From Escherichia coli (lineage in GTDB: Bacteria > Pseudomonadota > Gammaproteobacteria > Enterobacterales > Enterobacteriaceae): 64,000 bases of DNA. Position 1 is the first letter of the stretch. Each line of letters opens with the position of its first letter. Below the pieces are notes generated by a model that did no database searches, was not told the origin of the DNA, and saw nothing but the letters and a program-made list of their open reading frames with translations. The stretch is taken from the NCBI RefSeq assembly GCF_003019035.1, contig NZ_CP027447.1; one strand, written 5' to 3'. Positions 1,114 to 49,273 of the stretch are shown here, one piece after another. The translations under genes and the position numbers were made by a program.

Positions 1114-2346
1114 TCACCGCTCCTCCGCCAGCTCGGCAGCCTGATGCTGGCGCACGCGATTGAGCAATCCCGCCAGGGTGAAAACGACGATAACGCCCGC
1201 TAAAACGGCTAACAGATGAAACGGCAAGCGACCGCCGTTAAACCACAGCCAGCGGCCGATTTCGACTGAGACAGACATCACCATCAGGATCACCATATTT
1301 AGCGATGCGGAGACGGTCCCTTTCGGTAAGTTATTGGAAAACAGCGTAAAGCGGAATAAGGTCGGGAAAATCAAACCAATCCCGAAAGCATACAGACTGG
1401 TGCCCAGCACCGACCACAGCCAGACGTGCGGCGACAGCAGATTGCCGATAATCAACAGCGAGAGGCCGACCAGTTGAAGGGGTACGGCACGCCAGATAAA
1501 CCGCGGTTCGGTCGGATCTTTAACGAAACGCGCCACGATGGCATTCGCAACAATCACCGCGCCGAACACCGGAACCTGTGTCCAGGCGAACTGCGAAGTT
1601 GTTAAGCCGCCTGCATCGATAAGGATCACCGGCGAGACAGCCACCCAGCTCATCATCGGGATATAGCTTAAAGAGATGGTTGCTGCGCCAAAGAGGAACA
1701 GCCGATTGCAAAAGACATTACGAAAATCGCGCAAGACGCTTTTGGCGCTAAACGGAACCGCGCCGCGCTTCACCGTCTCTGGCATCGCCAACAGTAAGCC
1801 AACAAATGAGATAAAACCCATAACCGCAATGATGGCAAAAAGGACTTTCCAGTGCATAAAGTGCATCAGAGCTGCGCCGGAAAGCGGGCCGATAATCGGC
1901 GCAATCAGTACGATGGAGGTGATAATCGCCATCAACTTGATCCCTTTTGTCTGTCCGAACGCCTCCTGCACCGTGACATAACCAACGGTGGCAATAAAAC
2001 AGATACTGGTGCCCTGAATGGCACGCGCGATAAGAAACTGTGTCATAGACGTTGTGAACATTGTCGCGGCGCAGGCAAGGGTAAAAATTAGCGCCCCGGT
2101 AATCAGCACCGGCCTGCGGCCAATTCTGTCGGAAAGTGGCCCCAATAGCCACTGTAACGCCATACCGCCAGCGAGATAGAGACTGACGGCAGCAGGGGCC
2201 AGACTGACATCGGCATTAAAATCACGTACCACATTAATAATCCCTGGCTGGATTAGATCCGTCGACAGGTACGCGGCAAAGTCATACAAAATCAACGCCA
2301 TCGGGAAAAACAGCGTGGCGGCATGGCGGGCAAAAAAACGTGGCAT
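1114..2346 (-). CDS. mdtM: MFS multidrug efflux transporter MdtM
   Basis: 410 aa from ATG at 2346 ([10 protein letters not shown]...) with AAGGAG 8 nt upstream; track ORF starts 9 nt further up at TTG; MFS motifs [13 protein letters not shown]. Confidence 0.9.
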
Positions 2347-2813
2347 AAAAAACAACTCCTTGTCCGGAGAACCCCAATGGGGAAAACGAAATTCAATACC
2401 GTCGGTAATGACGAAAGGCAGGCGAGAAGGACAAATGTACTGAATTTCATGTAATCAACCACACTGCCTGTGAACACACAGACAGAGAAATACCTTCTGA
2501 CTCCAGGTCAGAATGTATAACGATTACAAATAGTCATCAGCACATTACACCTCTTGAATTGATGGATTGCATAGAAAATATACACCTTAAGTGTAATTAA
2601 AATTTGCGGTTAATCAAAAGAGCGCGGTGGAAAGGGGAATATCTGCCGGGTACAGGACATGTAAAAACACGAGCCTGTTTCCGGAAAAATGTATCGTTTG
2701 CAGAGGAACAAAAATAGCCTGGAAAGCACCTCGGGGAACGAGAAATTGCCGGGTGAGAATTGTTTTGTTAGTCGCTACAGTCGGGCCATCTTATCTACAG
2801 GTGACGGATCGCC

Positions 2814-3770
2814 ATGACAAACTTCACGACCAGTACGCCGCATGACGCATTATTTAAATCCTTTCTCACGCACCCTGACACCGCGCGGGATTTTATGGAG
2901 ATCCACTTACCCAAAGATTTACGTGAACTGTGCGATCTCGACAGCTTAAAACTGGAATACGCCAGCTTTGTCGATGAAAAATTGCGGGCGCTACATTCCG
3001 ATATTCTGTGGTCGGTAAAGACCCGCGAAGGAGATGGCTATATTTATGTGGTGATTGAACATCAGAGCCGCGAGGATATCCATATGGCCTTTCGCCTGAT
3101 GCGATATTCCATGGCGGTGATGCAGCGCCATATCGAGCGTGATAAACGCCGGCCGCTACCGCTGGTCATCCCGATGCTGTTTTATCACGGTAGCCGTAGT
3201 CCTTACCCCTGGTCTTTGTGCTGGCTGGATGAATTTGCCGACCCGGCTACCGCACGGAAGCTTTATACCGCAGCGTTCCCGCTGGTGGATGTCACTGTCG
3301 TGCCAGACGACGAGATTGTGCAGCATCGCAGAGTCGCCCTGCTGGAGTTGATCCAAAAGCATATTCGCCAGCGCGATCTAATGGGGCTTATTGATCAACT
3401 GGCAGTATTACTGGTTACAGGGTGCGCTAATGACAGCCAGATAACCGCGCTGTTAAATTACATTTTACTGACTGGCGATGAAGCGCGTTTTAATGAGTTT
3501 ATCAGCGAACTTATCCGTCGAATGCCACAACACAGGGAGCGAATAATGACGATTGCAGAGCGAATTCATAATGATGGATGGCTGTTGGGAAGGGAGAGGG
3601 GGAGGAAAGAAGGGAAAGAAGAAGGGGAAAAGAGCCTCCTCCGATTGTTGTTGCAGAATGGGGCGGATCCTGAATGGATACAACGATATACCGGACTTTC
3701 GGCAGAGCAAATGCAGGCATTAGATCAGCCCTTGCCTGAAAGCAAGCGCGATCCATGGATCGAGTACTAA
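2814..3770 (+). CDS. rpnD: Rpn (YhgA-like, PD-(D/E)XK transposase_31) recombination-promoting nuclease, intact 318 aa
   Basis: ORF track 2814..3770; family hallmarks [23 protein letters not shown] and Lys/Glu/Gly-rich C-terminus; position between mdtM and yjiR matches yjiP/yjiQ locus. Confidence 0.75.
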
Positions 3771-9624: not shown

Positions 9625-9690
9625 ATCGCGCTCCAACCCTGGCTAATTTCTGGTAAGCATTCCCGTATCAGTAGAAAACCTTACCAGAAA

Positions 9691-9710
9691 GCCCCTGATT
9701 TTACAGGGGC
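9691..9710 (-). terminator. Hairpin between hsdS stop and hsdR start
   Basis: gcccctg-atttta-caggggc inverted repeat; on the coding (minus) strand followed by tttctggtaagg; implies a separate hsdR promoter. Confidence 0.4.
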
Positions 9711-9718
9711 AAAATGCG

Positions 9719-11113
9719 TTATGCAGTTTCTGTATCGGTGTTGAGATCCGGAAGATCTTCCCGGGATAGCTCACCGGAGATGAGTTTCGGGAGCAGGGTG
9801 TCGCGGAGGTTGCTCAGGACTATTTGATTATTATTATGTGACTTGTCAATCCAAGGCATAACGATATTATAAAAAGTATTAATTATTTCAACATCTGGCA
9901 TAACTACATGTTCAGCCTCAAGAAAATATTTTGTCTGGAAGTTAGCGATTCCTGTACTTTGGTTTTGGTATTCCCACATTTTTCCATCGTTATATATTTT
10001 ATTGAGGTGTAAACTAATTATTAGCCCTATCTCTATAGATAACGGCTCAAACTTGCGACAAAAACTAGCAGGTTCAATAATACCCCCTAATCGACTTATA
10101 ATCTGTTCAGTCATGAAAATTGAACGGCCAGTTGACTGCGTTGGACTTCCTCCTGAAACTTCTATTATAATATCACCATTATTAATTTTTCTTTTTTCGA
10201 GTTTTTTGGGTTCTACCCATCTACATGGGGCAGAACTCATTTTCCCTGAAATTAACTCCGGGATATCAGTACCGCGCACTATCACTGCTTGAATTGTATG
10301 CTTTTCATCTCTGGAATCACTCCCCCAGTCACCACCAATTGTATTTTTTAGTAAACTATTAACATTTGAAAACTTCCAACCTTTAGGAATTAAACCTAAC
10401 TCCGTTTCTTCAAATTCACTTGGGAAAAGCGAGCGGATTTCCGCCGGAAGCGGTTTAAAATCTGTACTATTACGTACTTTTTGACGCAACTCGGCACGAG
10501 ATTGCAGAGCCTCCGGGATTGGATTTCCTGCATCCAGAGCGTTATCAACCACCGGATCAAAATCCACAAACCAGGATTTGAACAGGGTTTGGGACATTTG
10601 TTCTAATGACTTATTTATTACTTCATTGGATTTTAGCTTACTAAATATAAGAGTGTTTGTTTTTGCGATATGTTGGCAATATTTATCTGGTGCAAGATTA
10701 AATTCATAATCTAATATGGCTGTTTTATCACCCCTTGGCATTTTGGTGCCTTTGGATGTTAAAACAGTATGTTCGATGAATTTTTGATCCATTAATACTG
10801 ATAGAATATAATTAGAATTAATATTTTTTTTAGGACGGAATACAATTACATCGTTAGAACAGCCACCAGTTCGATCTGCAAGCCATAGTTTTTTAAAATA
10901 TGTTCTGATATTCGAGAATAAAATATCTCCAGAATGAAATTTTGTTATTTTCCCTGTGCTAGGTTTACTATTTGCTATTGATATACCTCCAAAATTGGTA
11001 AGCATATTTTCAGTTGATATGTAATCGCAAAGACTAATTTGCGATACATCAACTTTAGTAGTGATGATATCTACAACTTCTTTAAGTTTTATTTTCTCCC
11101 ACTTACTCCCCAT
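9719..11113 (-). CDS. hsdS: Type I R-M specificity subunit (HsdS), two target-recognition domains
   Basis: 464 aa from ATG at 11113 (MGSKWEKIKLKEVVDII...), overlapping the hsdM stop by 11 nt; TRD-like motif GDILFSNIRTYFKK; strongly AT-rich DNA by eye. Confidence 0.85.
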   Translation of the reverse strand: MGSKWEKIKLKEVVDIITTKVDVSQISLCDYISTENMLTNFGGISIANSKPSTGKITKFHSGDILFSNIRTYFKKLWLADRTGGCSNDVIVFRPKKNINSNYILSVLMDQKFIEHTVLTSKGTKMPRGDKTAILDYEFNLAPDKYCQHIAKTNTLIFSKLKSNEVINKSLEQMSQTLFKSWFVDFDPVVDNALDAGNPIPEALQSRAELRQKVRNSTDFKPLPAEIRSLFPSEFEETELGLIPKGWKFSNVNSLLKNTIGGDWGSDSRDEKHTIQAVIVRGTDIPELISGKMSSAPCRWVEPKKLEKRKINNGDIIIEVSGGSPTQSTGRSIFMTEQIISRLGGIIEPASFCRKFEPLSIEIGLIISLHLNKIYNDGKMWEYQNQSTGIANFQTKYFLEAEHVVMPDVEIINTFYNIVMPWIDKSHNNNQIVLSNLRDTLLPKLISGELSREDLPDLNTDTETA

Positions 11114-12722
11114 AACCCAGCACCTCCAGATTCTGGCGAATCGCACGATCCAGTTCTTCCGCCTGCTTCATCTGCTCAAACAACGTCTTCGACAATTCGC
11201 GCATTTTCGTCTCAAATGCCACGCCGTCCTCTTCCTGCTCGGCTGCACCTACATAGCGGCCCGGTGTCAGAACGTAGTCGTTATCTTTAATGTCTTGCAG
11301 GGTCGCAACTTTGCAGAAGCCAGCCTGGTCTTCATATTTTTCCAGCTTGCTGTCACCACGCGCAATCCGTGCAGCCAGTTCTTCCGGCGTACTGCGCCAG
11401 GCATGGTAGGTATCGGCGATGGTGGCAATATCTTCCGTTGTTAACTCTTTAGTTGTGCGGCTAATCATGGTGCCGAGGTTACGCGCATCAATAAACAGCG
11501 TCTCGCCCTGACGATCACGATAACCTTTGGCCGGATCGGCAGCCTTCGATTTGGTCATAAACCATAAACACACCGGGATCTGCGTGGTGTAAAACAACTG
11601 ACCTGGCAGAGCGATCATGCAGTCAATCAGATCATTTTCGATCATCTGTGCACGGATCTCGCCTTCACCGCTGGTGTTAGAACTCATCGAACCGTTTGCC
11701 AGCACAAAACCTGCTGTGCCGTTAGCCGACAGCTTGGAGAGCATATGCAAAATCCAGCCGTAGTTGGCGTTACCGGTTGGCGGCATACGATACCCAGCAA
11801 AACGTGGGTCTTTGGTTAATTCGGCTTCATTACGCCAGTCTTTCAGGTTGAACGGCGGGTTCGCCAGAATGTAGTCGGCTTTCAGGTCCGGGTGCTGGTC
11901 GCTAAAGAAAGTGTTTGCCGGTCGTTCGCCGAGGTTAGCTGAAAGACCGCGAATGGCGAGGTTCATTTTTGCCAGTTTATACGTCGTGGCAGTCAGTTCC
12001 TGACCATACAGCGCGATATCACGGCTTTTACCCTGATGGCTCTCGACAAACTTCACCGACTGCACGAACATCCCCGCCGAACCGCAGCACGGGTCATAAA
12101 TTTTGCCCTGAAAGGGTTCGAGCATTTCAGTTAACAGCGTAACCACACATTTAGGCGTGTAGAACTCACCACCGCCTTTGCCTTCAGTTGCGGCAAACTT
12201 ACCGAGGAAGTATTCGTAAACGCGTCCGACCAGGTCTTCTTTCGATAACGTTTCAACGTCAGTTTCGTGTGCCAGCGTTTCGATGTTGTCGATGGTATCA
12301 ATCAGTGACGCCAGTTTTTTGGTTTCCAGATTCTGACGGCTGAAGTAGTTGTCTGGCAGCGCGCCTTTCAGGGTTGGGTTACGTTTCTCAATGGTCGAGA
12401 GGGCGGTGTCAATACGAACCGCAATATCGTCCTGTTTGGCATTTTGTTTGATAAACGACCAGCGCGCCTCTTCCGGCAGGTAGAAAATGTTGTCCTGCTG
12501 GTAGAACACTTCCATCTCAAGGAAGTCAGCTTGCCCATCGGCAATCATTTTTTTGCGGCGTGCTTCAAACTTATCGCTGATGAATTTCAGGAACACGAGG
12601 CTCAACACCACGTGCTTGTATTCGGAGGACTCAACGCTACCGCGAAGCTGGTTTGCTGTATCCCATAATGTTTCTTCAAAGCCTTTCTTTGCTTTGGCTT
12701 TTTTAGTTGGTGCTTTGGCCAT
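11103..12722 (-). CDS. hsdM: Type I R-M N6-adenine DNA methyltransferase subunit (HsdM)
   Basis: 539 aa; SAM-binding IYDPCCGSAGMF and catalytic NPPF (ILANPPFNLKDW). Confidence 0.9.
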   Translation of the reverse strand: MAKAPTKKAKAKKGFEETLWDTANQLRGSVESSEYKHVVLSLVFLKFISDKFEARRKKMIADGQADFLEMEVFYQQDNIFYLPEEARWSFIKQNAKQDDIAVRIDTALSTIEKRNPTLKGALPDNYFSRQNLETKKLASLIDTIDNIETLAHETDVETLSKEDLVGRVYEYFLGKFAATEGKGGGEFYTPKCVVTLLTEMLEPFQGKIYDPCCGSAGMFVQSVKFVESHQGKSRDIALYGQELTATTYKLAKMNLAIRGLSANLGERPANTFFSDQHPDLKADYILANPPFNLKDWRNEAELTKDPRFAGYRMPPTGNANYGWILHMLSKLSANGTAGFVLANGSMSSNTSGEGEIRAQMIENDLIDCMIALPGQLFYTTQIPVCLWFMTKSKAADPAKGYRDRQGETLFIDARNLGTMISRTTKELTTEDIATIADTYHAWRSTPEELAARIARGDSKLEKYEDQAGFCKVATLQDIKDNDYVLTPGRYVGAAEQEEDGVAFETKMRELSKTLFEQMKQAEELDRAIRQNLEVLGYGE

Positions 12723-34103: not shown

Positions 34104-34577
34104 TTATACGCGAGGGCGCTTGCGGTACAACCATAATCCAGGAATGGAAAGACCGATGGATAACGCACCAACAATCGATGAAGCTGTAAGAAAGTTGGTT
34201 AACAGGGTAATCATCAACGGTTCGCTGTAACCTAGCTGGCTGATTTTTACCGCCGAAATCATTGCGGTATAAGCTGATATGCCAGGGAACATAGGGATAA
34301 CAGCCGCCACGGTAAACACTTTCGGATGTGCCAGATACCAGCGCGACCATTGAATACCAATGGTGCCGACCAGCATAGAAGCCATAAAAGTTGACCACTC
34401 AATATTCAACCCGCTGGTCATTAAGATCATTCGGGAACCATGACCTATCGAGCCAAGCAGCGCACACCAGCGTAACGCCCGCACGGGAACGTTGAACACC
34501 ATTGCAAAGCCGACCGCTGGAATGGCGGCGAGGATCATATCCTGCGCCAACGCTAACAGAAATTCGATCACACCCAT
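34104..34577 (-). CDS. yjjB: Inner-membrane protein YjjB (ThrE-like C-terminal half)
   Basis: 157 aa from [20 protein letters not shown]; overlaps the yjjP 3' end. Confidence 0.8.
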
Positions 34578-35338
34578 CCGCGTAGCCCCCAAATCGTCAG
34601 TGCCATTACTACGCCGACACAGGTAGCCAGTGTCAGCAGACTGGCGATCGCCCAGCGTGCCAGTCCGGTATTGATGTGGCCTTTAAACATATCGGCGACG
34701 GCATTTATCAACGGAAAGCCCGGCACCAGCAGCAGAACGCTGGCGGCCATCGCAATGGTGGGGGTATTGCTGAAAGTGGGAAGTTGCAAAAGCAATCCGG
34801 AAATGGTGGTGGCGGCGAAAGCGGTGAGGCAAAAGTTGATCTGTGGATGAAGATGACGTTGTGCCAGTAGCTGGCGGATATACATCGCGGCCGTACTGGC
34901 AAAGAAGGTGATGACGGCACCATCCCAGCCACCTTTATTGAGTTTACAGAAACAGGCGCAGGAAAGGCCAACCATTAAGGCTACCAGCCATCTTGGGTAA
35001 CGTAATGGCTGAATTTGGCTAAATCGTTTCTCTACGCCTTTGTAATCCAGCAGATGATGCTCCGCCAGAATCACAATGTGCTGGACTTCAGTCACCACAT
35101 GCATATTAATGCCGCGATCGTGATTTTTACGTGTCGATGTCAGGCATTGCCCATCTTTAATAGTTGTCAGCACTATGGCGTTCGAAGAGATAGAACTTTC
35201 GACGCTGTCCATTCCCAACGCCCGACCCAGTCGTGAGGAAAGCTCATCAACCAACGCGCTTTCCGCACCATGTTGCAAAAGAAATAATCCACACTGGATA
35301 CAAAGCCGTGTTACGGCTCGCTGTTGCTCAGTTTGCAT
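34568..35338 (-). CDS. yjjP: Inner-membrane protein YjjP (ThrE-like N-terminal half)
   Basis: 256 aa from [17 protein letters not shown]... Confidence 0.8.
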
Positions 35339-35955
35339 AACTCGCCCTTTGTCATAGACGTGCTGCGTATTGTTCAGATAATGAGAATCCATTTGTATCA
35401 TGAAGCGCGGTTGTTTTGCGGCAGGTTAAGATCAAAATTGCGCTGATTAATCCTGGTTATCGGGAGAAGCTCGGTGTTAAAAGCGAATTATCTCTCGCCG
35501 CAAACAAATTATCGCATGAATATTATCACTATAATGAATTTATTGTTTAGCCCTTACGAATCAGGATAAAAGATAACTGGGCGCGTTTTTTAATTTTAAC
35601 AAGTTAAAACTATCAGATTTTATTGAATAAATATTGATTGTGTGATTTTGCATCCTGCGGGAAGGGATATCAGTTAATTATAAATTAAGTGAATGAGAAT
35701 TCTGTTTTTCATTAAGTATTTCTAACAACTTAATGTAGATATTTTAAATGTCTCCAGGCTATTTCACCAGGTTATCATTTGATGCTAACCTTCTGACACA
35801 TGCAGTGGAGTTGTTGTGCAGCAGGAGTATGCTGATATGAAAGTGAATGCTAAGGATAATTTATTCGCTTAATCTATTAATTTGCTGGAAACATTTAAGG
35901 AATGAATATCCTGAATAAACCATCATGATTTTTAGACAGTGGATGTGGAGGAAAT

Positions 35956-36681
35956 ATGTTGCCAGGATGCTGCAAAAATGGAATTGTTATCAGTAAAATA
36001 CCTGTTATGCAAGCAGGGTTAAAAGAGGTCATGAGGACTCACTTCCCTGAATATGAAATAATATCCAGCGCCTCTGCGGAGGACCTTACCTTATTACAAT
36101 TACGTCGTTCCGGATTAGTCATTGCTGATTTAGCCGGTGAAAGTGAAGATCCACGTTCTGTTTGTGAACATTATTATTCTTTAATCTCGCAATATCGGGA
36201 AATTCACTGGGTTTTCATGGTGTCACGCTCCTGGTATTCCCAGGCAGTAGAACTGCTTATGTGCCCTACGGCGACGTTATTGTCTGATGTTGAACCCATT
36301 GAGAATCTGGTCAAGACCGTACGTTCCGGCAATACGCACGCAGAGCGTATCAGCGCCATGCTGACCTCTCCGGCAATGACTGAAACTCATGATTTTAGCT
36401 ATCGCTCCGTCATTCTCACTCTTTCAGAGCGCAAAGTGCTTCGGCTATTAGGTAAAGGATGGGGCATCAACCAGATAGCTTCATTGCTTAAGAAAAGTAA
36501 TAAAACTATCAGCGCCCAAAAAAACAGTGCGATGCGTCGACTGGCAATTCACAGCAACGCTGAAATGTATGCATGGATAAATAGCGCGCAGGGTGCAAGA
36601 GAACTTAATTTGCCTTCTGTTTATGGAGATGCCGCAGAATGGAACACAGCCGAATTAAGAAGAGAAATGTCGCACTCATAG
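35956..36681 (+). CDS. yjjQ: LuxR/FixJ-type transcriptional regulator YjjQ
   Basis: 241 aa; C-terminal LuxR HTH; overlaps bglJ. Confidence 0.85.
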
Positions 36682-37316
36682 AAAAATGCGTCATGAGCAG
36701 TATCGGTATTGAGAGTTTATTCAGAAAGTTTGCGGGTAACCCTTATAAGCTCCATACCTATACCAGTCAGGAGTCATTTCAGGATGCCATGTCGCGGATC
36801 TCGTTTGCGGCGGTCATTTTTTCTTTTTCTGCCATGAGAAGTGCGCGCAGAGAGGGATTATCCTGCCTGACTGAACTGGCGATTAAGTTTCCGCGTACCC
36901 GGCGTTTAGTTATTGCGGATGATGATATTGAAGCTCGGCTGATTGGTTCATTGTCGCCATCACCGCTGGACGGTGTATTAAGTAAAGCGTCAACGCTGGA
37001 GATTTTTCATCAGGAACTCTTTTTGTCATTAAATGGTGTACGTCAGGCGACCGATCGACTGAACAATCAGTGGTACATTAACCAAAGCCGGACGTTAAGC
37101 CCGACGGAGAGAGAAATATTGCGCTTTATGTCGCGTGGCTACTCAATGACACAAATTGCCGAGCAGCTTAAACGCAATATCAAAACGATCCGTGCACATA
37201 AATTTAATGTGATGTCGAAACTGGGCGTCAGTTCTGATGCAGGATTGTTGGAGGCCGCAGATATTCTGTTATGTATGCGTCATTGCGAAGCAAGTAACGT
37301 GTTGCACCCCTATTAA
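36639..37316 (+). CDS. bglJ: LuxR-type transcriptional activator BglJ
   Basis: 225 aa; LuxR HTH ([25 protein letters not shown]). Confidence 0.85.
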
Positions 37317-37354
37317 TACGCTTAATGCCGGGTTTACTTCCCCGGCAAATTTTT

Positions 37355-38143
37355 CTATTTCAGCGTACAGTCACCACATTGCTGCACATCCGGCAAGCGA
37401 TAACGCTGGCAGCAAGTGCGGCGCACCAGCAGGCCGTCGCGCAGTACCACGGTACGCCAGAGTGGATTATCTTCACCGTTCGTGAGCATTTTCTCAAAAA
37501 AGAGGGCATGGCGCAGCGATTCAACCGTCGCCTCGCCAAGCAGCTGCTTCATCTCAGTGAGATACCAGTTGATCAAATAACCGGTATTACTCCAGATAAG
37601 TTTGCCGTTGATCTCTCCCGTCGCTTCTAATGCCTGCACAACCGGAACCAGCGCCTGGCTGATTAACGTTTCCATTCGCTGCTGCGGCGAATGTGGTGTT
37701 GCGTTTTTATCTTCACACACATCGACCCAGAAACAGGCGGCGCGTCCGGTTTCGTGAAACTCAACGTGGAAATGTTCCGGCGACACATCTAATGCTTTTT
37801 CCTGCGTCAGCAGCGCCAACATTAATGGTGGCACCATCAGGCCGATATACCATTGTACCCATAGTGAGATCAGCGGTTTGTTCTCGCGGCTCATCGTTGG
37901 TTGGTTGCGATAGATATGATCGGAATAGACCGCGAGTAGAGAACTTAGCGCATTCGGTGATGACCATTGCGCCAGCGTCATGGCGTTAAGCGGAGCGGGT
38001 TCATCCAGGCGGATAAACTCGAGCAAATGTTCACGATGTTCGGCGATCGTCGCCCGTACGGCTTGTGCAAGCCCAGCATCCTGCGGCTGGAGATGCATTC
38101 GCCAGATAACATCTTCATAGAGCGGTGCGGAACGATAGGCCAT
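37355..38143 (-). CDS. fhuF: Ferric-siderophore reductase FhuF (2Fe-2S)
   Basis: 262 aa; C-terminal Cys cluster (CCQRYRLPDVQQCGDC). Confidence 0.9.
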   Translation of the reverse strand: MAYRSAPLYEDVIWRMHLQPQDAGLAQAVRATIAEHREHLLEFIRLDEPAPLNAMTLAQWSSPNALSSLLAVYSDHIYRNQPTMSRENKPLISLWVQWYIGLMVPPLMLALLTQEKALDVSPEHFHVEFHETGRAACFWVDVCEDKNATPHSPQQRMETLISQALVPVVQALEATGEINGKLIWSNTGYLINWYLTEMKQLLGEATVESLRHALFFEKMLTNGEDNPLWRTVVLRDGLLVRRTCCQRYRLPDVQQCGDCTLK

Positions 38144-38159
38144 AATCGTGATAGTAATC

Positions 38160-38270
38160 TAAATGATAATGATTGCTAATCCTAGCGATAGGTTTACCCG
38201 ATAGCAAGGGATTTCTCTGGCTTGCAAATGATAAAAATTATCATATGATATTAGTTATCATTATCAATGA
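38160..38270. promoter_or_regulatory. Fur-box-like operator region upstream of fhuF
   Basis: gataatgattgctaatc and tatcattatcaatga match the Fur consensus GATAATGATAATCATTATC. Confidence 0.5.
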
Positions 38271-38283
38271 AAGAGATGAAACC

Positions 38284-38520
38284 ATGTTGCAACGTACGCT
38301 GGGCAGTGGCTGGGGAGTGTTGCTGCCGGGATTGCTGATTGCAGGGCTGATGTATGCGGATTTATCGCCGGATCAATGGCGGATTATCATTCTGATGGGA
38401 TTAGTATTGACGCCGGTGATGCTGTATCACAAACAGTTGCGGCATTACGTTTTGCTGCCATCGTGCCTGGCGCTTATTGCTGGCATCATGCTGATGATAA
38501 TGAATTTGAAGCAGGGATGA
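38284..38520 (+). CDS. yjjZ: Small membrane protein YjjZ
   Basis: 78 aa from ATG at 38284 (MLQRTLGSGWGVLLPGLLIAGLMYADL...). Confidence 0.7.
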   Translation: MLQRTLGSGWGVLLPGLLIAGLMYADLSPDQWRIIILMGLVLTPVMLYHKQLRHYVLLPSCLALIAGIMLMIMNLKQG

Positions 38521-38558
38521 TAAAACAGGGAAGCAACAAGAAAGGAAGTAAAGATAAT

Positions 38559-38645
38559 TGGTGCGAGGGGGGGGACTTGAACCCCCACGTCCGTAAGGAC
38601 ACTAACACCTGAAGCTAGCGCGTCTACCAATTCCGCCACCTTCGC
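38559..38645 (-). tRNA. leuV: tRNA-Leu(CAG), copy 1
   Basis: 87-nt reverse complement of canonical tRNA-Leu1 (GCGAAGGUGGCGGAAUUGGUAGACGCG...CCCCCCCCUCGCACCA). Confidence 0.9.
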
Positions 38646-38679
38646 ACAGTCATCTTACTTTTTTTGATATCGCCTCGTT

Positions 38680-38765
38680 TGGTGCGAGGGGGGGACTTGA
38701 ACCCCCACGTCCGTAAGAACACTAACACCTGAAGCTAGCGCGTCTACCAATTCCGCCACCTTCGC
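38680..38765 (-). tRNA. leuP: tRNA-Leu(CAG), copy 2, variant (86 nt)
   Basis: Same as copies 1 and 3 except G-run of 7 instead of 8 and aagaac instead of aaggac. Confidence 0.75.
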
Positions 38766-38793
38766 CCAGTGCGAGCAATATCAACGTGGTTTT

Positions 38794-38880
38794 TGGTGCG
38801 AGGGGGGGGACTTGAACCCCCACGTCCGTAAGGACACTAACACCTGAAGCTAGCGCGTCTACCAATTCCGCCACCTTCGC
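38794..38880 (-). tRNA. leuQ: tRNA-Leu(CAG), copy 3
   Basis: 87 nt, identical to copy 1. Confidence 0.9.
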
Positions 38881-38989
38881 ATACCATCAATTCTTAAAAA
38901 GAATTGCTACCACGGAGGCGCATTCTAGTGGTTTTCAGCTTTTCGTCAATAGTTAATTATCGCCGGAGGTGTAATTGCTGGAAAAATGT

Positions 38990-39175
<186 letters not shown>

Positions 39176-39180
39176 GATAC

Positions 39181-40212
39181 TCAACCTTTCTTCGCCTGGC
39201 GGGTCATAATGGCGCGATACACCTTGAAGCGCCCGGTTTGCGCGATCACTTCGTGGAAGCCAAATGTCTCATCCAGCACGTCCGGGTAAGGCAGGAAGGC
39301 GTTCGCTACAATTCGCAACTCGCCGCCGCTGTTCAGATGACGCACCGCGCCGCGAATCAGCGTTTGCGCGGCATCCAGGCTGGTTTGCATCCCATCGTGG
39401 AATGGCGGGTTGGAGATGATCATATCAAAACGACCTTTCACCTCGGAAAAGACGTTGCTGGCAAAGACTTCACCTTCAACACCGTTGGCCGCAAGTGTTG
39501 CACGGCTGGCTTCTACCGCCGGGGCAGAGACATCGCACAGAGTGAGACGAATCTTCGGCGAGTGGCGCGCAAACGCAACTGAAAGCACACCTGCACCGCA
39601 GCCGACATCCAGCACTTTACCTTTCGTGTGCGGGGTTAACGTCGAGAGCAGTAACTGGCTACCGACATCCAGACCGTCGCGGCTAAACACGCCCGGCAGC
39701 GTTTTGACCGTCAGGCCATCGACACTGTATTCGCCCCAGAATTTCTCGGCATCAAATACTGGCTGTTTTTCCAGACGACCAAAATAGAGGCCACAGCGAC
39801 GAGCGCTGTCCACTTTATTCAACGGCGCATAATCTGCCAGCATCTGCTCGGCGCTGCGCACGCCGCTGCGGTTCTCACCAACGACGAATATGTCAGTCCC
39901 CACCGGCAGCAGAGAAAGTAAATTCATCAACTGGAACTGGGCTTCCGGTTTGTTCTTCGGCCAGTAGTAAATCAGCGTATCGCAATCTGCGACATCATTC
40001 GCCGTGGCGACCAGACTAAAACGGGCGTTATCCCCCATCTGGCGGCTTAACACCTGCCAGTGGTGGAATTGCTGGGTATGAGCACGGCTGTCCGCGGTAT
40101 CTAAACGCGCGGGCAGGTCATCCTGTAAGTCTCCGGCAAACAGAATACGGCTTTGTTCGAAATCATCACTGTGACGCAGCAAGACTTCACTTGCCGGGGT
40201 AAATGCAGACAT
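39181..40212 (-). CDS. rsmC: 16S rRNA (guanine1207-N2)-methyltransferase
   Basis: 343 aa; SAM motif [12 protein letters not shown] and NPPFH. Confidence 0.9.
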
Positions 40213-40314: not shown

Positions 40315-40728
40315 ATGACATCCCGACGAGACTGGCAGTTACAGCAACTGGGCATTACCCAGTGGTCGCTGCGTCGCCCTGGCGCGTTGCAGGGGGAGAT
40401 TGCCATTGCGATCCCGGCACACGTCCGTCTGGTGATGGTGGCAAACGATCTTCCCGCCCTGACTGATCCTTTAGTGAGCGATGTTCTGCGCGCATTAACC
40501 GTCAGCCCCGATCAAGTGCTGCAACTGACGCCAGAAAAAATCGCGATGCTGCCGCAAGGCAGTCGCTGCAACAGCTGGCGGTTGGGTACTGACGAACCGC
40601 TATCACTGGAAGGCGCTCAGGTGGCATCACCGGCGCTCACCGAATTACGGGCAAACCCAACGGCACGCGCCGCGTTATGGCAACAAATTTGCACATATGA
40701 ACACGATTTCTTCCCTCGAAACGACTGA
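40315..40728 (+). CDS. holD: DNA polymerase III psi subunit
   Basis: 137 aa MTSRRDWQLQQLGITQWSLRRP... Confidence 0.9.
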   Translation: MTSRRDWQLQQLGITQWSLRRPGALQGEIAIAIPAHVRLVMVANDLPALTDPLVSDVLRALTVSPDQVLQLTPEKIAMLPQGSRCNSWRLGTDEPLSLEGAQVASPALTELRANPTARAALWQQICTYEHDFFPRND

Positions 40729-41143
40729 TTTACCAGCGGCTTACCACATTGAACAACGCGCCCACGCCTTTCCGTGGAGTGAAAAAACCTTTGCCAGTAA
40801 TCAGGGCGAGCGCTATCTCAACTTTCAGTTAACGCAAAACGGCAAAATGGCGGCGTTTGCGATTACGCAAGTGGTGCTGGATGAAGCTACATTGTTCAAT
40901 ATTGCGGTCGATCCTGACTATCAGCGTCAGGGACTGGGAAGGGCGCTGCTGGAACATCTGATCGACGAACTGGAAAAACGCGGCGTGGCGACGCTATGGC
41001 TGGAAGTCCGTGCTTCAAACGCTGCCGCCATTGCCCTGTACGAAAGTTTAGGCTTTAACGAGGCGACAATTCGCCGCAATTACTACCCCACCACGGACGG
41101 TCGCGAAGACGCCATCATCATGGCGTTGCCAATCAGTATGTAA
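40697..41143 (+). CDS. rimI: Ribosomal protein S18 alanine N-acetyltransferase (GNAT)
   Basis: 148 aa; GNAT motif [14 protein letters not shown]; overlaps the holD 3' end. Confidence 0.9.
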
Positions 41144-46895: not shown

Positions 46896-47751
46896 ACAGC
46901 GCCGGAAATATCAACCGGCTCACCCCGCGCTCCTGTAACGCATCAGCCAACGGCTCAACGTCTTCCGGCGTGGCGCTCGGCCAGCTTTGCGCCTCGCCAT
47001 ACACGCCGTGGGCATGAAACGCGTTCAGGCGTACCGGAACATCGCCAAGTCCCTTGATTAACGCCGCCAGTTCTTCGATGTGTTGCAAATAATCCACCTG
47101 GCCAGGGATTACCAGCAAACGCAGTTCCGCCAGCTTACCGCGCTCTGCCAGCAAACAGATGCTGCGCTTGATCTGCTGATTATCGCGTCCGGTTAATTGC
47201 TGATGACATTCGCTCCCCCACGCTTTGAGATCGAGCATTGCGCCGTCGCACACCGGAAGCAATTTTTCCCAGCCGGTTTCGCTCAACATGCCATTACTGT
47301 CCACCAGACAGGTGAGGTGGCGCAGTTGCGGATCATTTTTGATAGCAGTAAACAGCGCCACCACAAACGGCAGCTGGGTCGTGGCTTCGCCGCCGCTTAC
47401 CGTTATCCCTTCGATAAACAGCACCGCTTTGCGGATATGGCTAAGCACCTCATCCACGCTCATGGATTGCGCCATTGGTGTGGCATGTTGCGGACACATC
47501 TTCAGGCAGGTATCGCACTGCTCGCAGACTACAGCGTTCCACGCCACTTTGCCGTCAACAATCTGCAACGCCTGATGCGGACACTGTGGCACGCACTCCC
47601 CGCAATCATTGCAACGTCCCATCGTCCACGGATTGTGACAGTTTTTGCAGCGCAGATTGCAGCCCTGCAAAAACAGAGCCAGACGACTGCCTGGCCCGTC
47701 AACGCAGGAGAAGGGGATAATCTTACTGACTAAAGCGCATCTGCTGTTCAT
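46888..47751 (-). CDS. yjjW: Glycyl-radical enzyme activating protein (radical SAM) YjjW
   Basis: 287 aa; CxxxCxxC radical-SAM cluster ([10 protein letters not shown]) plus ferredoxin-like Cys motifs. Confidence 0.85.
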
Positions 47752-49273
47752 GGCTTATCACGCGCGGCTGGCGTTCCAGAATACGAGTGTTGCGTGCGGC
47801 CTCTTCGCCCAGCCAGGTGGTGTTGGTACGTGAGCCTTCGGCACGATATTTTTCCAGATCCGACAAACGCACCATATAACCAGTAACGCGAACCAGATCG
47901 TTACCGCTGACATTGGCGGTAAATTCACGCATTCCGGCTTTAAAGGCACCGAGGCAAAGCTGTACCAGCGCCTGCGGATTACGTTTGATGGTTTCGTCGA
48001 GTGTCAGAATGTCGCTGATGCCGGAATAATAATAAGCATGATGCGGGGCGACAGTTTGCAGATGGGTGATCGGATCTGGCTCATCGCCATACGGCAAACG
48101 TGCGCCCGGCGTGGTGCCGATATCGGAACTTATCCCCGACTGTGCGTGTAACATGGCGCGTTTTTGCCAGCCATATTTCACGGGGGTATTGGCGACAAAC
48201 TCCGCCAGTTGCGCGCTGATGCGATAACCCACTTCATTTGCGGCGGCTTCTTTACCGTAGCGCGCGGCAATCCCTTCTTTCTCACACAGCAAGTTAACCG
48301 CTTCCGCCAGCCCATACATGCCAAACATTGGCACAAAACGTTCAGGGTTAATCAGCCCTTCTTTCACCAGGAAGCTATTCTCAAAGAAGTGTGATTGTTG
48401 ATAGAGGAATTCACACCGCGCATCGATGATGGCGATCTGCTGCTGGCAGTAGTGCGGTAGAGTGCGCGTAAAGAAGTCCTCCAGCGATTCACTGCGCTCG
48501 GCAATGGCTTTCAGGTTTAGGCGTACCAGCGTGCTGCCACCACCCGCCAGCGGCAGTGAGTTGTAACAGCTCACAATCCCGTAGCCCCCTTTTGTGAAAA
48601 TTTTATCATGCACCGGACCGTTGGCGATGTGCGGTTTGCTACATTCACAGATGTTCTTCGCCACTTCCAGCAGCAGGTCATCAGGGGTGATTTCAGGATC
48701 GTAGATAAAGGTCAGATTCGGTGAAACCTGCTTCAACTCTGCGTCTGCACGTAAGATTGCGCGGGTAATGGGCGAATCAGACGGGCCGATATTGGCGTGC
48801 ATAAAGGCATCTGGCAGGGTTCTGTCGAGGTAACGCCAGAAACGTTTTATTCGAATATCGATCTCGTCTTGTGTTAGAATTCTAACATACGGTTGCAACA
48901 ACGCATCCAGTTGCCCCAGGTAGACCGGCATCGATGTGACCGACGGTACGTGGTGGTAAAGAATGGTCAGCAGAGAGAGTGCGTCATCAAGATCTTTCGC
49001 GCCTTCCAGCTCCAGCCATTCGGAACCGTTCGCCAGAAAACGGGCGTAATCGGGTAAGACATAGCGCGGTTTGTACGGCGCATGACCTTCAAACATATCG
49101 CAGATTACACCCTCATCCAGCGCGCGGCGGGCTTCGGCAGGCAACGCGGGGTAAGGCAGATTGTTTTCTGCTTCCAGTGCCAGAAAATGGCGCTTCTGCT
49201 CCGGGCTAAGCACTGGGCTGGTGACAATTTGCAGGCAACGTTGTTGCAGTGCATTTTCATGAGAAGTGGGCAT
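47723..49273 (-). CDS. yjjI: DUF3029 putative glycine-radical enzyme YjjI
   Basis: 516 aa; overlaps the yjjW start, consistent with co-translation with its activase. Confidence 0.85.

Follow-up and report, generated by a model that had tools for sequence, protein, structure and literature searches.

Gene overlap, ribosome-binding sites and AT-rich regulatory DNA at the yjjQ-bglJ locus of Escherichia coli

What does it mean for the expression of two regulator genes that the second starts inside the first and that both lie behind a long tract of AT-rich DNA? A previous sequence-only reading had taken this tract for a 550-bp leader typical of H-NS-silenced loci, the overlap as implying translational coupling, and the gene pair for the known H-NS/LeuO-controlled yjjQ-bglJ operon. 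We followed up these claims in the window, that is, the whole analyzed stretch of 64,000 nucleotides. Sequence and synteny identify the DNA as the E. coli chromosomal locus yjjP <> yjjQ-bglJ, i.e., the yjjP / yjjQ-bglJ / fhuF region: The gene order yjjB-yjjP <> yjjQ-bglJ >< fhuF matches that of annotated E. coli genomes, strain TCM3e1 agrees with the window at 100% identity and shares its gene order and RefSeq annotation, and 5424 of the 5426 complete E. coli genomes carry the locus. The previously given coordinates of yjjQ (35956-36681, plus strand, 241 aa) and bglJ (36639-37316, plus strand, 225 aa) are exact, as both open reading frames agree with RefSeq (TCM3e1). The divergent neighbour yjjP (34568-35338, minus strand) encodes a ThrE-family exporter according to RefSeq and Pfam (ThrE, E = 4.9e-69).

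In K-12, the yjjQ-bglJ operon with its divergent neighbour yjjP is said to have been described by Stratmann, Madhusudan and Schnetz in 2008 in J Bacteriol 190:926. Comparison with a K-12-like O16:H48 strain (97.5% nucleotide identity, same neighbours) bore out the proposed match to this operon: Genes, order, lengths and the 43-nt overlap are shared, YjjQ is 100% identical, BglJ is 99.1% identical with two residues changed, and the AT-rich spacer is 95.95% identical, with a GC content of 0.345 and the same predicted promoter hexamers in both. These differences are allelic only and give no sign of altered regulation. This locus has been known since 2008, as have its operon structure, its silencing by H-NS and its activation by LeuO, and this knowledge has often been used since; what our analysis yields beyond a check of the annotation is small, and the additions are comparative: The overlap and the bglJ start are real and ancient, the overlap is constrained by a β-strand of BglJ and an embedded Shine-Dalgarno (SD) sequence, and the spacer measures 617 bp. 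They also counsel caution in equating an overlap with coupling, or a divergent promoter region with a leader.

The extent of the spacer depends on where yjjP starts. The left boundary used previously, 35402, derives from the longest yjjP open reading frame, which starts at 35401. We rejected this start: RefSeq places it at 35338, SD-like pairing amounts to -4.4 kcal/mol at 35338 versus +1.9 kcal/mol at 35401, and relatives within Escherichia carry 1-nt indels inside 35339-35401. Because yjjP starts at 35338, the divergent regulatory spacer between yjjP and yjjQ comprises 617 bp (35339-35955, GC 0.345) and not 554 bp. The abstract of Stratmann 2008 reportedly gives the length of the intergenic region as 555 bp and places H-NS binding in the middle of it; this length would fit an older, longer yjjP annotation.

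The AT-richness of the tract upstream of yjjQ stood up to windowed GC calculation: Positions 35402-35955 have a GC content of 0.339 versus 0.514 for the window, and just 0.57% of all 554-bp windows are equally low. A leader with the GC content of its flanking genes had been named as the finding that would speak against the claim; the values of these neighbours are 0.507 (yjjP), 0.446 (yjjQ), 0.456 (bglJ) and 0.534 (fhuF). AT-rich regulatory DNA, here with a GC content of 0.339-0.345 and thus at the 0.6th percentile of the window, is a hallmark of H-NS-silenced loci. In our comparative set of 26 orthologous loci from the four genera represented by Escherichia, Citrobacter, Salmonella arizonae and Intestinirhabdus, every locus (26/26) has an AT-rich stretch of ~300 bp ahead of yjjQ, and the tract adjoins yjjQ even where pobA/pobR-like genes part it from yjjP. 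The 230 bp adjoining yjjQ are conserved, whereas the centre of the spacer is divergent and poorly conserved even within Escherichia; 24 of the 25 spacer differences from the K-12-like strain fall within 35407-35721, i.e., in its distal and central part. A search for the high-affinity H-NS nucleation motif (TCGATAAATT) returned four sites in the spacer versus 0.87 expected (P = 0.012), a figure confounded by AT-richness: All four carry two mismatches, and such an enrichment is expected for any AT-rich DNA. The same search found no H-NS nucleation site with one mismatch or fewer in the spacer. A repeat search of the spacer returned short direct and inverted repeats of low significance only, and an Rfam scan of 34500-39000 (E ≤ 1) three tRNA-Leu genes only; neither the spacer nor the gene junction matched any known riboswitch, leader RNA or sRNA.

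The regulatory claim of the sequence-only reading agrees with published reports. H-NS represses and LeuO activates yjjQ-bglJ,(PMC5025477, PMC3950696) Shimada 2014 marks the yjjP <> yjjQ spacer 'HNS',(PMC3946193) and both divergent genes are reported to be under H-NS repression with LeuO antagonism.(PMC5025477, PMC3950696, PMC3946193) Moreover, insertions of IS elements into the spacer arise repeatedly as adaptive mutations in the mouse gut, and they alter yjjP expression.(PMC5094792) Taking the regulation from this literature, H-NS would bind the 617-bp spacer and silence both divergent promoters, and LeuO would counteract it. The bgl operon, leuO and the cas/CRISPR promoter likewise have AT-rich regulatory DNA, are silent in the laboratory and are relieved by a dedicated antagonist, and they form one regulatory network with yjjQ-bglJ.(PMC5025477, PMC3950696) In contrast to these systems, the silenced unit at yjjQ-bglJ encodes the regulators themselves, and its silencing region is common to two divergent promoters.

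The description of the tract as a 550-bp leader had to be given up: It is a divergent intergenic regulatory region, and the sigma-70 promoter predicted therein by consensus scan (CTGATA-17-GATAAT, 35832-35860, plus strand) would leave a 5'UTR of only ~90 nt, with a transcription start predicted near 35867. The same hexamers are given for yjjQ-bglJ in the literature,(PMC3946193) and both the -10 region and the AATTC downstream of it show conservation between genera. Translation of yjjQ is served by the SD sequence TGGAGG (35946-35951, plus strand), whose anti-SD pairing of -9.3 kcal/mol ranks in the top 0.8% of window ATGs and which is essentially invariant in 14 loci of four genera (G316 90% conserved). 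The two genes yjjQ and bglJ are co-transcribed, probably from the predicted promoter ~90 nt upstream of yjjQ.

Both products carry a C-terminal GerE/LuxR helix-turn-helix (HTH) domain (PF00196), matched at residues 153-206 in YjjQ (E = 6.6e-8) and 152-203 in BglJ (E = 1.3e-12), each above the Pfam gathering cut-off. Structure prediction was needed because placement of the N-terminal domains by sequence alone failed: Neither protein has a Pfam Response_reg match at E ≤ 0.01, PDB phmmer matches cover the HTH alone, and hhalign of YjjQ versus RcsB likewise aligns only the HTH. The AF2 models, which are of moderate confidence (pLDDT 72-74) and based on shallow alignments, show five β-α units in both proteins and thus the (βα)5 receiver fold. 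For YjjQ they suggest a receiver-like (βα)5 domain (pLDDT 80-91), the HTH, and a disordered C-terminal tail (pLDDT <50 at 221-241), and for BglJ an RcsB-like pseudo-receiver followed by the HTH. The best structural match of the BglJ model is full-length RcsB (TM up to 0.68/0.74), next to FixJ, NarL and EvgA, and hhalign relates BglJ to RcsB with 97.7% probability. Both YjjQ and BglJ find their best match in RcsB, by structure as well as by sequence, and like the NarL/FixJ regulators RcsB combines a (βα)5 N-terminal domain with a C-terminal GerE/LuxR HTH.

The two proteins depart from these relatives in the residues of the receiver active site. BglJ lacks the phospho-acceptor Asp: In the alignment with RcsB, Ser62 stands at Asp56 and Ala93 at Thr87, while Lys116 is kept at Lys109, and, as read by eye, Glu15-Lys16 replace the acidic pair of response regulators. 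In YjjQ the Asp at the end of β3 (Asp58) is invariant, but Ser13-Lys14 occupy the acidic-pair position after β1. Because of these departures, both appear to be atypical or pseudo-receivers, and on the strength of alignments and models we class neither as a canonical phospho-regulated response regulator. We take YjjQ and BglJ to be RcsB/NarL-type regulators, BglJ without a phospho-acceptor Asp; that BglJ acts with RcsB is a published partnership.

The 43-nt overlap (36639-36681, plus strand), which comprises amino acids 1-14 of BglJ and 228-241 of YjjQ, had been read correctly, as the open reading frames are exact, identical in RefSeq (TCM3e1) and conserved across genera. Among the 26 loci, Escherichia has an overlap of 43 nt, Citrobacter and Intestinirhabdus have one of 40 nt, and S. 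arizonae has one of 52 nt. Within the window it is the longest of ~8 annotated same-strand overlaps, with rimI/holD (32 nt) and yjjI/yjjW (29 nt) being of comparable order. Upstream of the bglJ ATG, the SD region TATGGAGA (36622-36629, plus strand) is embedded in the yjjQ codons for Tyr-Gly-Asp/Glu, its GGAG (36625-36628) lying 10 nt ahead of the ATG, which is towards the upper limit of functional spacings. TATGGAGA is invariant in all 26 loci and holds the sole degenerate third positions of yjjQ that never vary (2 of 47), and its anti-SD pairing amounts to -6.4 kcal/mol (top 4.8%), which indicates that the bglJ SD is under purifying selection. Comparative and model evidence leads us to regard the overlap and the annotated bglJ start as genuine and ancient, and the overlapped DNA as constrained by the N-terminus of BglJ and the embedded SD rather than by the tail of YjjQ: In the AF2 models, strand β1 of BglJ (amino acids 9-14) is encoded in the overlap, whereas the segment of the YjjQ tail that the overlap specifies is predicted to lack order. 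The TAG of yjjQ is made up by the BglJ codons Ile14-Glu15 and would merely be the first stop that the yjjQ frame meets inside bglJ.

Two parts of this account could be explained away by more ordinary circumstances. Concerning the spacer, its low GC content might be no more than what is usual between genes, or be left over from horizontal acquisition, and have no regulatory meaning, with silencing not acting via the tract. Intergenic DNA of E. coli is generally AT-richer than coding DNA, and the weak H-NS motif matches and the poorly conserved spacer centre would suit this explanation; we nevertheless consider it extremely unlikely, as the tract belongs to the lowest 0.6% of the window and is kept beside yjjQ across genera whatever the upstream neighbour, and as both the H-NS repression of the two divergent genes with LeuO antagonism and the recurrent gut IS insertions that change yjjP expression(PMC5094792) are published. 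Concerning the overlap, the true bglJ start could be a second in-frame ATG (ATG2, Met19; 36693-36695, plus strand), in which case the overlap would be an annotation artefact and bglJ would be translated by reinitiation across a short gap. Long annotated overlaps often stem from start-site errors, and ATG2 is conserved in all loci, 12 nt beyond the yjjQ stop, or overlapping it as TGATG in S. arizonae. Against this stands the signature of a translated BglJ frame upstream of ATG2: Over the final 27 nt of the overlap, 8/9 of the third BglJ codon positions vary versus 4/9 of the first and 3/9 of the second, between the yjjQ stop and ATG2 the third positions vary in 4/4 versus 1/3 of the first and 1/4 of the second, and the motif NVAL(I/V)EKC is conserved. 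ATG2 moreover has no SD pairing (+0.2 kcal/mol), whereas ATG1 and its SD are invariant, and a start at Met19 would forfeit residues 9-14, which form β1, a central strand in the receiver-like fold. We thus place hardly any credence in an artefact and, from codon signature, SD pairing and model, hold that ATG2 is not the main bglJ start. Only marginally less improbable is that ATG2 is a genuine termination-reinitiation start and two BglJ isoforms are made; if so, full-length BglJ would arise from the SD-driven ATG1 and a β1-less form from ATG2, the amount of which would be coupled to YjjQ synthesis and could modulate the BglJ-RcsB heterodimer. More likely, Met19 is merely a conserved structural residue.

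With the annotated start retained, the claim that the overlap implies coupling can be assessed. One feature of coupled pairs, a downstream gene that begins no later than the stop of the upstream gene on a shared mRNA, is present (43 nt here, 40-52 nt across loci); the other, a downstream ribosome-binding site (RBS) that is unavailable unless the upstream gene is translated, is absent, given the bglJ SD and a junction RNA fold with no structure beyond shuffled controls (minimum free energy -22.7 kcal/mol, z = +1.03; 172 of the 200 shuffled sequences fold equally well or better). On account of this fold, coupling in the form of RBS unmasking was rejected. Furthermore, in the bglJC allele yjjQ/bglJ-Y6::mTn10 a mini-Tn10 lies upstream of bglJ, which is expressed constitutively,(PMC3950696, PMC6698644) although a fortuitous reading frame that reads into the junction may conceivably account for this. 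The overlap alone is insufficient to carry the claim: Because bglJ has its own SD, no masking structure and this allele, coupling is possible but neither implied nor needed. Classical coupled overlaps (ATGA / TAATG, 1-4 nt) resemble yjjQ/bglJ in that both genes lie on the same strand of one operon and the downstream start precedes the upstream stop; here, however, the overlap exceeds theirs tenfold, the SD is independent and conserved, no structure occludes it, and a dependence on upstream translation is a proposal.

Under strict coupling, all or most translation of bglJ would fall to ribosomes coming from yjjQ, which would either terminate at 36681 and scan back ~43 nt to 36639 or open the bglJ RBS while translating yjjQ. 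Once they have terminated, 70S ribosomes can rescan tens of nucleotides, as the scanning model of Adhin and van Duin reportedly holds, the overlap of 40-52 nt is conserved in four genera, and a single mRNA carries both genes with no intergenic gap; in addition, the native operon yields too little BglJ to activate its targets even under LeuO activation,(PMC5025477) which would be compatible with inefficient bglJ translation. Reported reinitiation distances, however, barely extend to the 43 nt of such a back-scan, and the opening of an RBS presupposes a sequestration that the junction fold does not display. The purifying selection on the bglJ SD, the constitutive BglJ activity of the mini-Tn10 allele and the yjjQ stop, which is set by BglJ codons and shifted in S. 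arizonae with the bglJ frame unaffected, likewise argue against strict coupling, which we consider unlikely. We infer instead that bglJ initiates at the ATG at 36639 via its own GGAG, within the structured-to-disordered part of yjjQ, so that its translation would be SD-driven and could proceed without that of yjjQ; the passage of ribosomes along yjjQ may modulate it, and strict coupling would not be required. The account as a whole, comprising a silenced divergent spacer, co-transcription, a genuine overlap and SD-driven bglJ translation, appears to us highly probable.

At the other end of the operon, a scan for terminator-like hairpins found four candidates versus 1.9 ± 1.4 expected. Those within bglJ (36790-36812, plus strand) and at the junction (36690-36671, minus strand) were deemed chance matches. 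In the gap between bglJ and the convergent fhuF lies an intrinsic-terminator-like hairpin with a T-run (37326-37347, plus strand), which consists of seven base pairs, six of them G-C, followed by AATTTTTCTA. Its stem, TGCCGGG/CCCGGCA, is invariant in five Escherichia lineages while loop and flanks vary, and transcription of the operon would end at this hairpin.

The ORF list places yjjQ (241 aa) at 35956-36681 and bglJ (225 aa) at 36639-37316, both on the plus strand, with a divergent ThrE-family gene, yjjP, on the minus strand, whose longest ORF extends to 35401. The sequence-only reading had recognized here the known H-NS/LeuO-controlled yjjQ-bglJ operon, and this identification is right: In megablast the 2.1-kb region is present in 5424 of 5426 complete E. 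coli genomes, identical (100%) in strain TCM3e1 and ~97.5% identical in a K-12-like O16:H48 strain, and both strains carry the same annotation for yjjP, yjjQ, bglJ, and fhuF. At the protein level, identity to the K-12-like strain is 100% for YjjQ and 99.1% for BglJ. The locus is already known, and nothing found here is new in kind. According to later papers from the laboratory of Stratmann et al. 2008, H-NS represses the operon, LeuO is its sole known activator, BglJ forms a heterodimer with RcsB that is active independently of RcsB phosphorylation, and bglJ becomes constitutive by upstream mini-Tn10 insertion, as in the allele yjjQ/bglJ-Y6::mTn10 (PMC5025477, PMC3950696, PMC6698644).

The tract upstream of yjjQ had been described as an AT-rich 550-bp leader. 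Its AT-richness stands, because the GC content of 35402-35955 is not equal to that of the flanking genes: It amounts to 0.339, below yjjP (0.507), yjjQ (0.446), bglJ (0.456), and fhuF (0.534) and against 0.514 for the whole window, in which only 0.57% of 554-bp segments have a GC content this low. The term leader, on the other hand, is an over-reading, and the tract is a regulatory spacer. Shimada et al. 2014 list the spacer between yjjP and yjjQ as an RNA polymerase SELEX site with the flag 'HNS' and predict CTGATA-17-GATAAT as the yjjQ-bglJ promoter (PMC3946193); our consensus scan independently found the same site at 35832-35860, from which transcription would start near 35867 with a predicted 5'UTR of ~90 nt. 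Both the block AAGGATAAnnAATTC..GTCTATT, which covers the -10 element, and the yjjQ Shine–Dalgarno (SD) sequence TGGAGG are conserved in 14 loci from four genera. A 14-nt inverted repeat (35744-35757 / 35885-35898, TTAAATGTCTCCAG / CTGGAAACATTTAA, 93% complementary) flanks the predicted promoter on both sides and may be a chance occurrence in AT-rich DNA. The predicted yjjP -10 hexamer, TTTAAT in K-12 (PMC3946193), reads CTTAAT at 35689 owing to a G/A polymorphism.

The extent of the spacer depends on the yjjP start, which RefSeq sets at 35338. SD-like pairing there is -4.4 kcal/mol against none at 35401 (+1.9), single-base indels occur between the two starts (35339-35401) in Escherichia relatives, and Citrobacter yjjP ORFs start at the equivalent of the 35338 methionine. 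The longest yjjP ORF (277 aa, start 35401) is therefore probably not used, and the spacer, often quoted as ~555 bp, really comprises 617 bp (35339-35955, GC 0.345).

Relative to the K-12-like strain this spacer is the most polymorphic segment of the unit (95.95% identity), with 24 of 25 differences in 35407-35721 and one in the 230 bp adjoining yjjQ; its centre diverges even among Escherichia. IS elements have repeatedly inserted into it as adaptive mutations in the mouse gut (PMC5094792). The 300 bp immediately 5' of yjjQ are AT-rich in all 26 loci (GC 0.18-0.43 per 100 bp), including those in which a pobA/pobR-like pair lies between the divergent genes and the tract has stayed beside yjjQ. 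The tract therefore belongs to the yjjQ-bglJ unit. This insertion (1229-3297 in locus record L012; also L021, L022, L024, and L026) occurs in C. amalonaticus, C. sedlakii, related Citrobacter, and Intestinirhabdus; its genes, named by eye from translations, resemble a 4-hydroxybenzoate hydroxylase and an AraC-type regulator. In most loci yjjQ and bglJ are also less GC-rich than the adjacent genes, as would suit a target of xenogeneic silencing. The H-NS nucleation motif is weakly enriched in the spacer (4 matches, all with two mismatches, against 0.87 expected), and Rfam returned no known RNA element. Elsewhere in the window, a second strongly AT-rich tract (~9643-11312, minimum GC 0.305 near 10542) spans the 5' part of yjiR, yjiS, and part of symE, adjoins pseudogene remnants of a type I restriction-modification system, and may be another H-NS-type target.

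The 43-nt overlap of yjjQ and bglJ (36639-36681) agrees with the ORF list and is 100% identical in the K-12-like strain. Scanning 100,044 species-representative genomes with BglJ yielded 30 loci, and every complete one has two in-frame bglJ ATGs: ATG1, the annotated start at 36639, lies inside yjjQ (overlap 43 nt in Escherichia, 40 nt in Citrobacter and Intestinirhabdus, 52 nt in S. arizonae), and ATG2 (36693, Met19) lies 12 nt past the yjjQ stop. Several lines favour ATG1. The BglJ-frame motif NVAL(I/V)EKC is conserved upstream of ATG2. Variable sites at BglJ codon positions 1, 2, and 3 number 4/9, 3/9, and 8/9 in the last 27 nt of the overlap and 1/3, 1/4, and 4/4 in the 11 nt from the yjjQ stop to ATG2; since BglJ position 3 is YjjQ position 2 in the overlap, it is the BglJ frame that is constrained, and coding reaches upstream of ATG2. 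In the AF2 model of BglJ (pLDDT 72.5), a start at Met19 would delete β1 (residues 9-14), the central strand of a (βα)5 receiver-like domain. SD pairing, finally, is -6.4 kcal/mol for ATG1 and absent for ATG2 (+0.2). The YjjQ model (pLDDT 74.3) is confident for a receiver-like domain and the HTH, with a tail (221-241) below 50; the overlap-encoded residues 228-241 form a variable extension that is predicted to be disordered. Moreover, the yjjQ TAG is formed by BglJ codons Ile/Val14-Glu15 (xTA GAA), and in S. arizonae GTC GAA abolishes it and yjjQ extends to the next stop; the length of the overlap thus seems to be a side effect of the BglJ coding sequence. Overlaps of tens of nucleotides are not unique to this pair, as rimI/holD (32 nt, 40698-40729) and yjjI/yjjW (29 nt, 47725-47753) overlap on the same strand as well.

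That the overlap implies translational coupling, as had been proposed, goes beyond the evidence. The octamer TATGGAGA (36622-36629), with GGAG 10 nt before the bglJ ATG, is invariant in 26 loci. Over the 150 nt preceding ATG1, 5 of 50 third-codon positions of yjjQ never vary; three belong to Met or Trp codons, and the sole two degenerate ones, in the neighbouring codons TAT and GGA, both fall within the octamer, a pattern that indicates selection on the bglJ SD itself. The predicted fold of the junction RNA (36590-36720; -22.7 kcal/mol, z = +1.03) is no more stable than those of shuffled sequences and thus offers nothing occluding for yjjQ ribosomes to open. In published mini-Tn10 alleles, one named for the yjjQ/bglJ region, bglJ is expressible from an upstream insertion (PMC3950696, PMC6698644). 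Together, SD, fold, and alleles point to bglJ initiation independent of yjjQ; strict coupling is unlikely. Coupling by back-scanning across the 43 nt is possible and may be one reason why the native operon yields little BglJ (PMC5025477).

Both proteins contain a GerE/LuxR HTH, for which RcsB is the closest solved structure. Full-length RcsB is also the best match to the BglJ model (E = 2.5e-9; TM up to 0.68/0.74), followed by FixJ, VpsT, StyR, NarL, and EvgA. In hhalign (probability 97.7%), RcsB 35-203, in a sequence that agrees with printed PDB alignments, aligns to BglJ 40-204: Ser62 takes the place of the phospho-acceptor Asp56, Ala93 that of Thr87, and Lys116 that of Lys109. BglJ is therefore a pseudo-receiver, which fits its phosphorylation-independent action with RcsB (PMC5025477). 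In YjjQ, Asp58 at the end of β3 is invariant and the acidic pair is absent.

At the end of the operon, ten nucleotides past the bglJ stop, a hairpin (37326-37347) is followed by a T-run; five Escherichia lineages share an unchanged stem, whereas loop and flanks vary. Inside bglJ, ~150 nt downstream of its start, a terminator-like hairpin with T-run (36790-36812, plus strand) probably arose by chance: the region yielded 4 such sites where 1.9 were expected. The flank at 37355-39900 (fhuF, yjjZ, three tRNA-Leu genes, rsmC side) has diverged much further from the K-12-like strain than has the dnaC-yjjB flank (98.9% identity), with 94.8% for fhuF and 92.35% with 66 gap columns downstream of it, which suggests a recombination or hypervariable boundary directly after bglJ.

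Some lineages show decay of the unit: a premature stop leaves yjjQ at 144 aa in E. coli SCPM-O-B-8794, Citrobacter koseri has a truncated bglJ, contig ends interrupt the bglJ of the E. albertii type strain, and the K-12-like strain PG20180170 carries yjjP as a pseudogene. In the locus records, decay of yjjP-yjjQ-bglJ lies at L005 3542-3976, L031 4228-4626, L002 1769-2539, and in L028/L029. Record L027 (NZ_JARVKW010000126.1), a 436-bp contig, bears the label Streptomyces sp. DH24 and matches E. coli bglJ/fhuF at 100% identity; it almost certainly represents assembly contamination.
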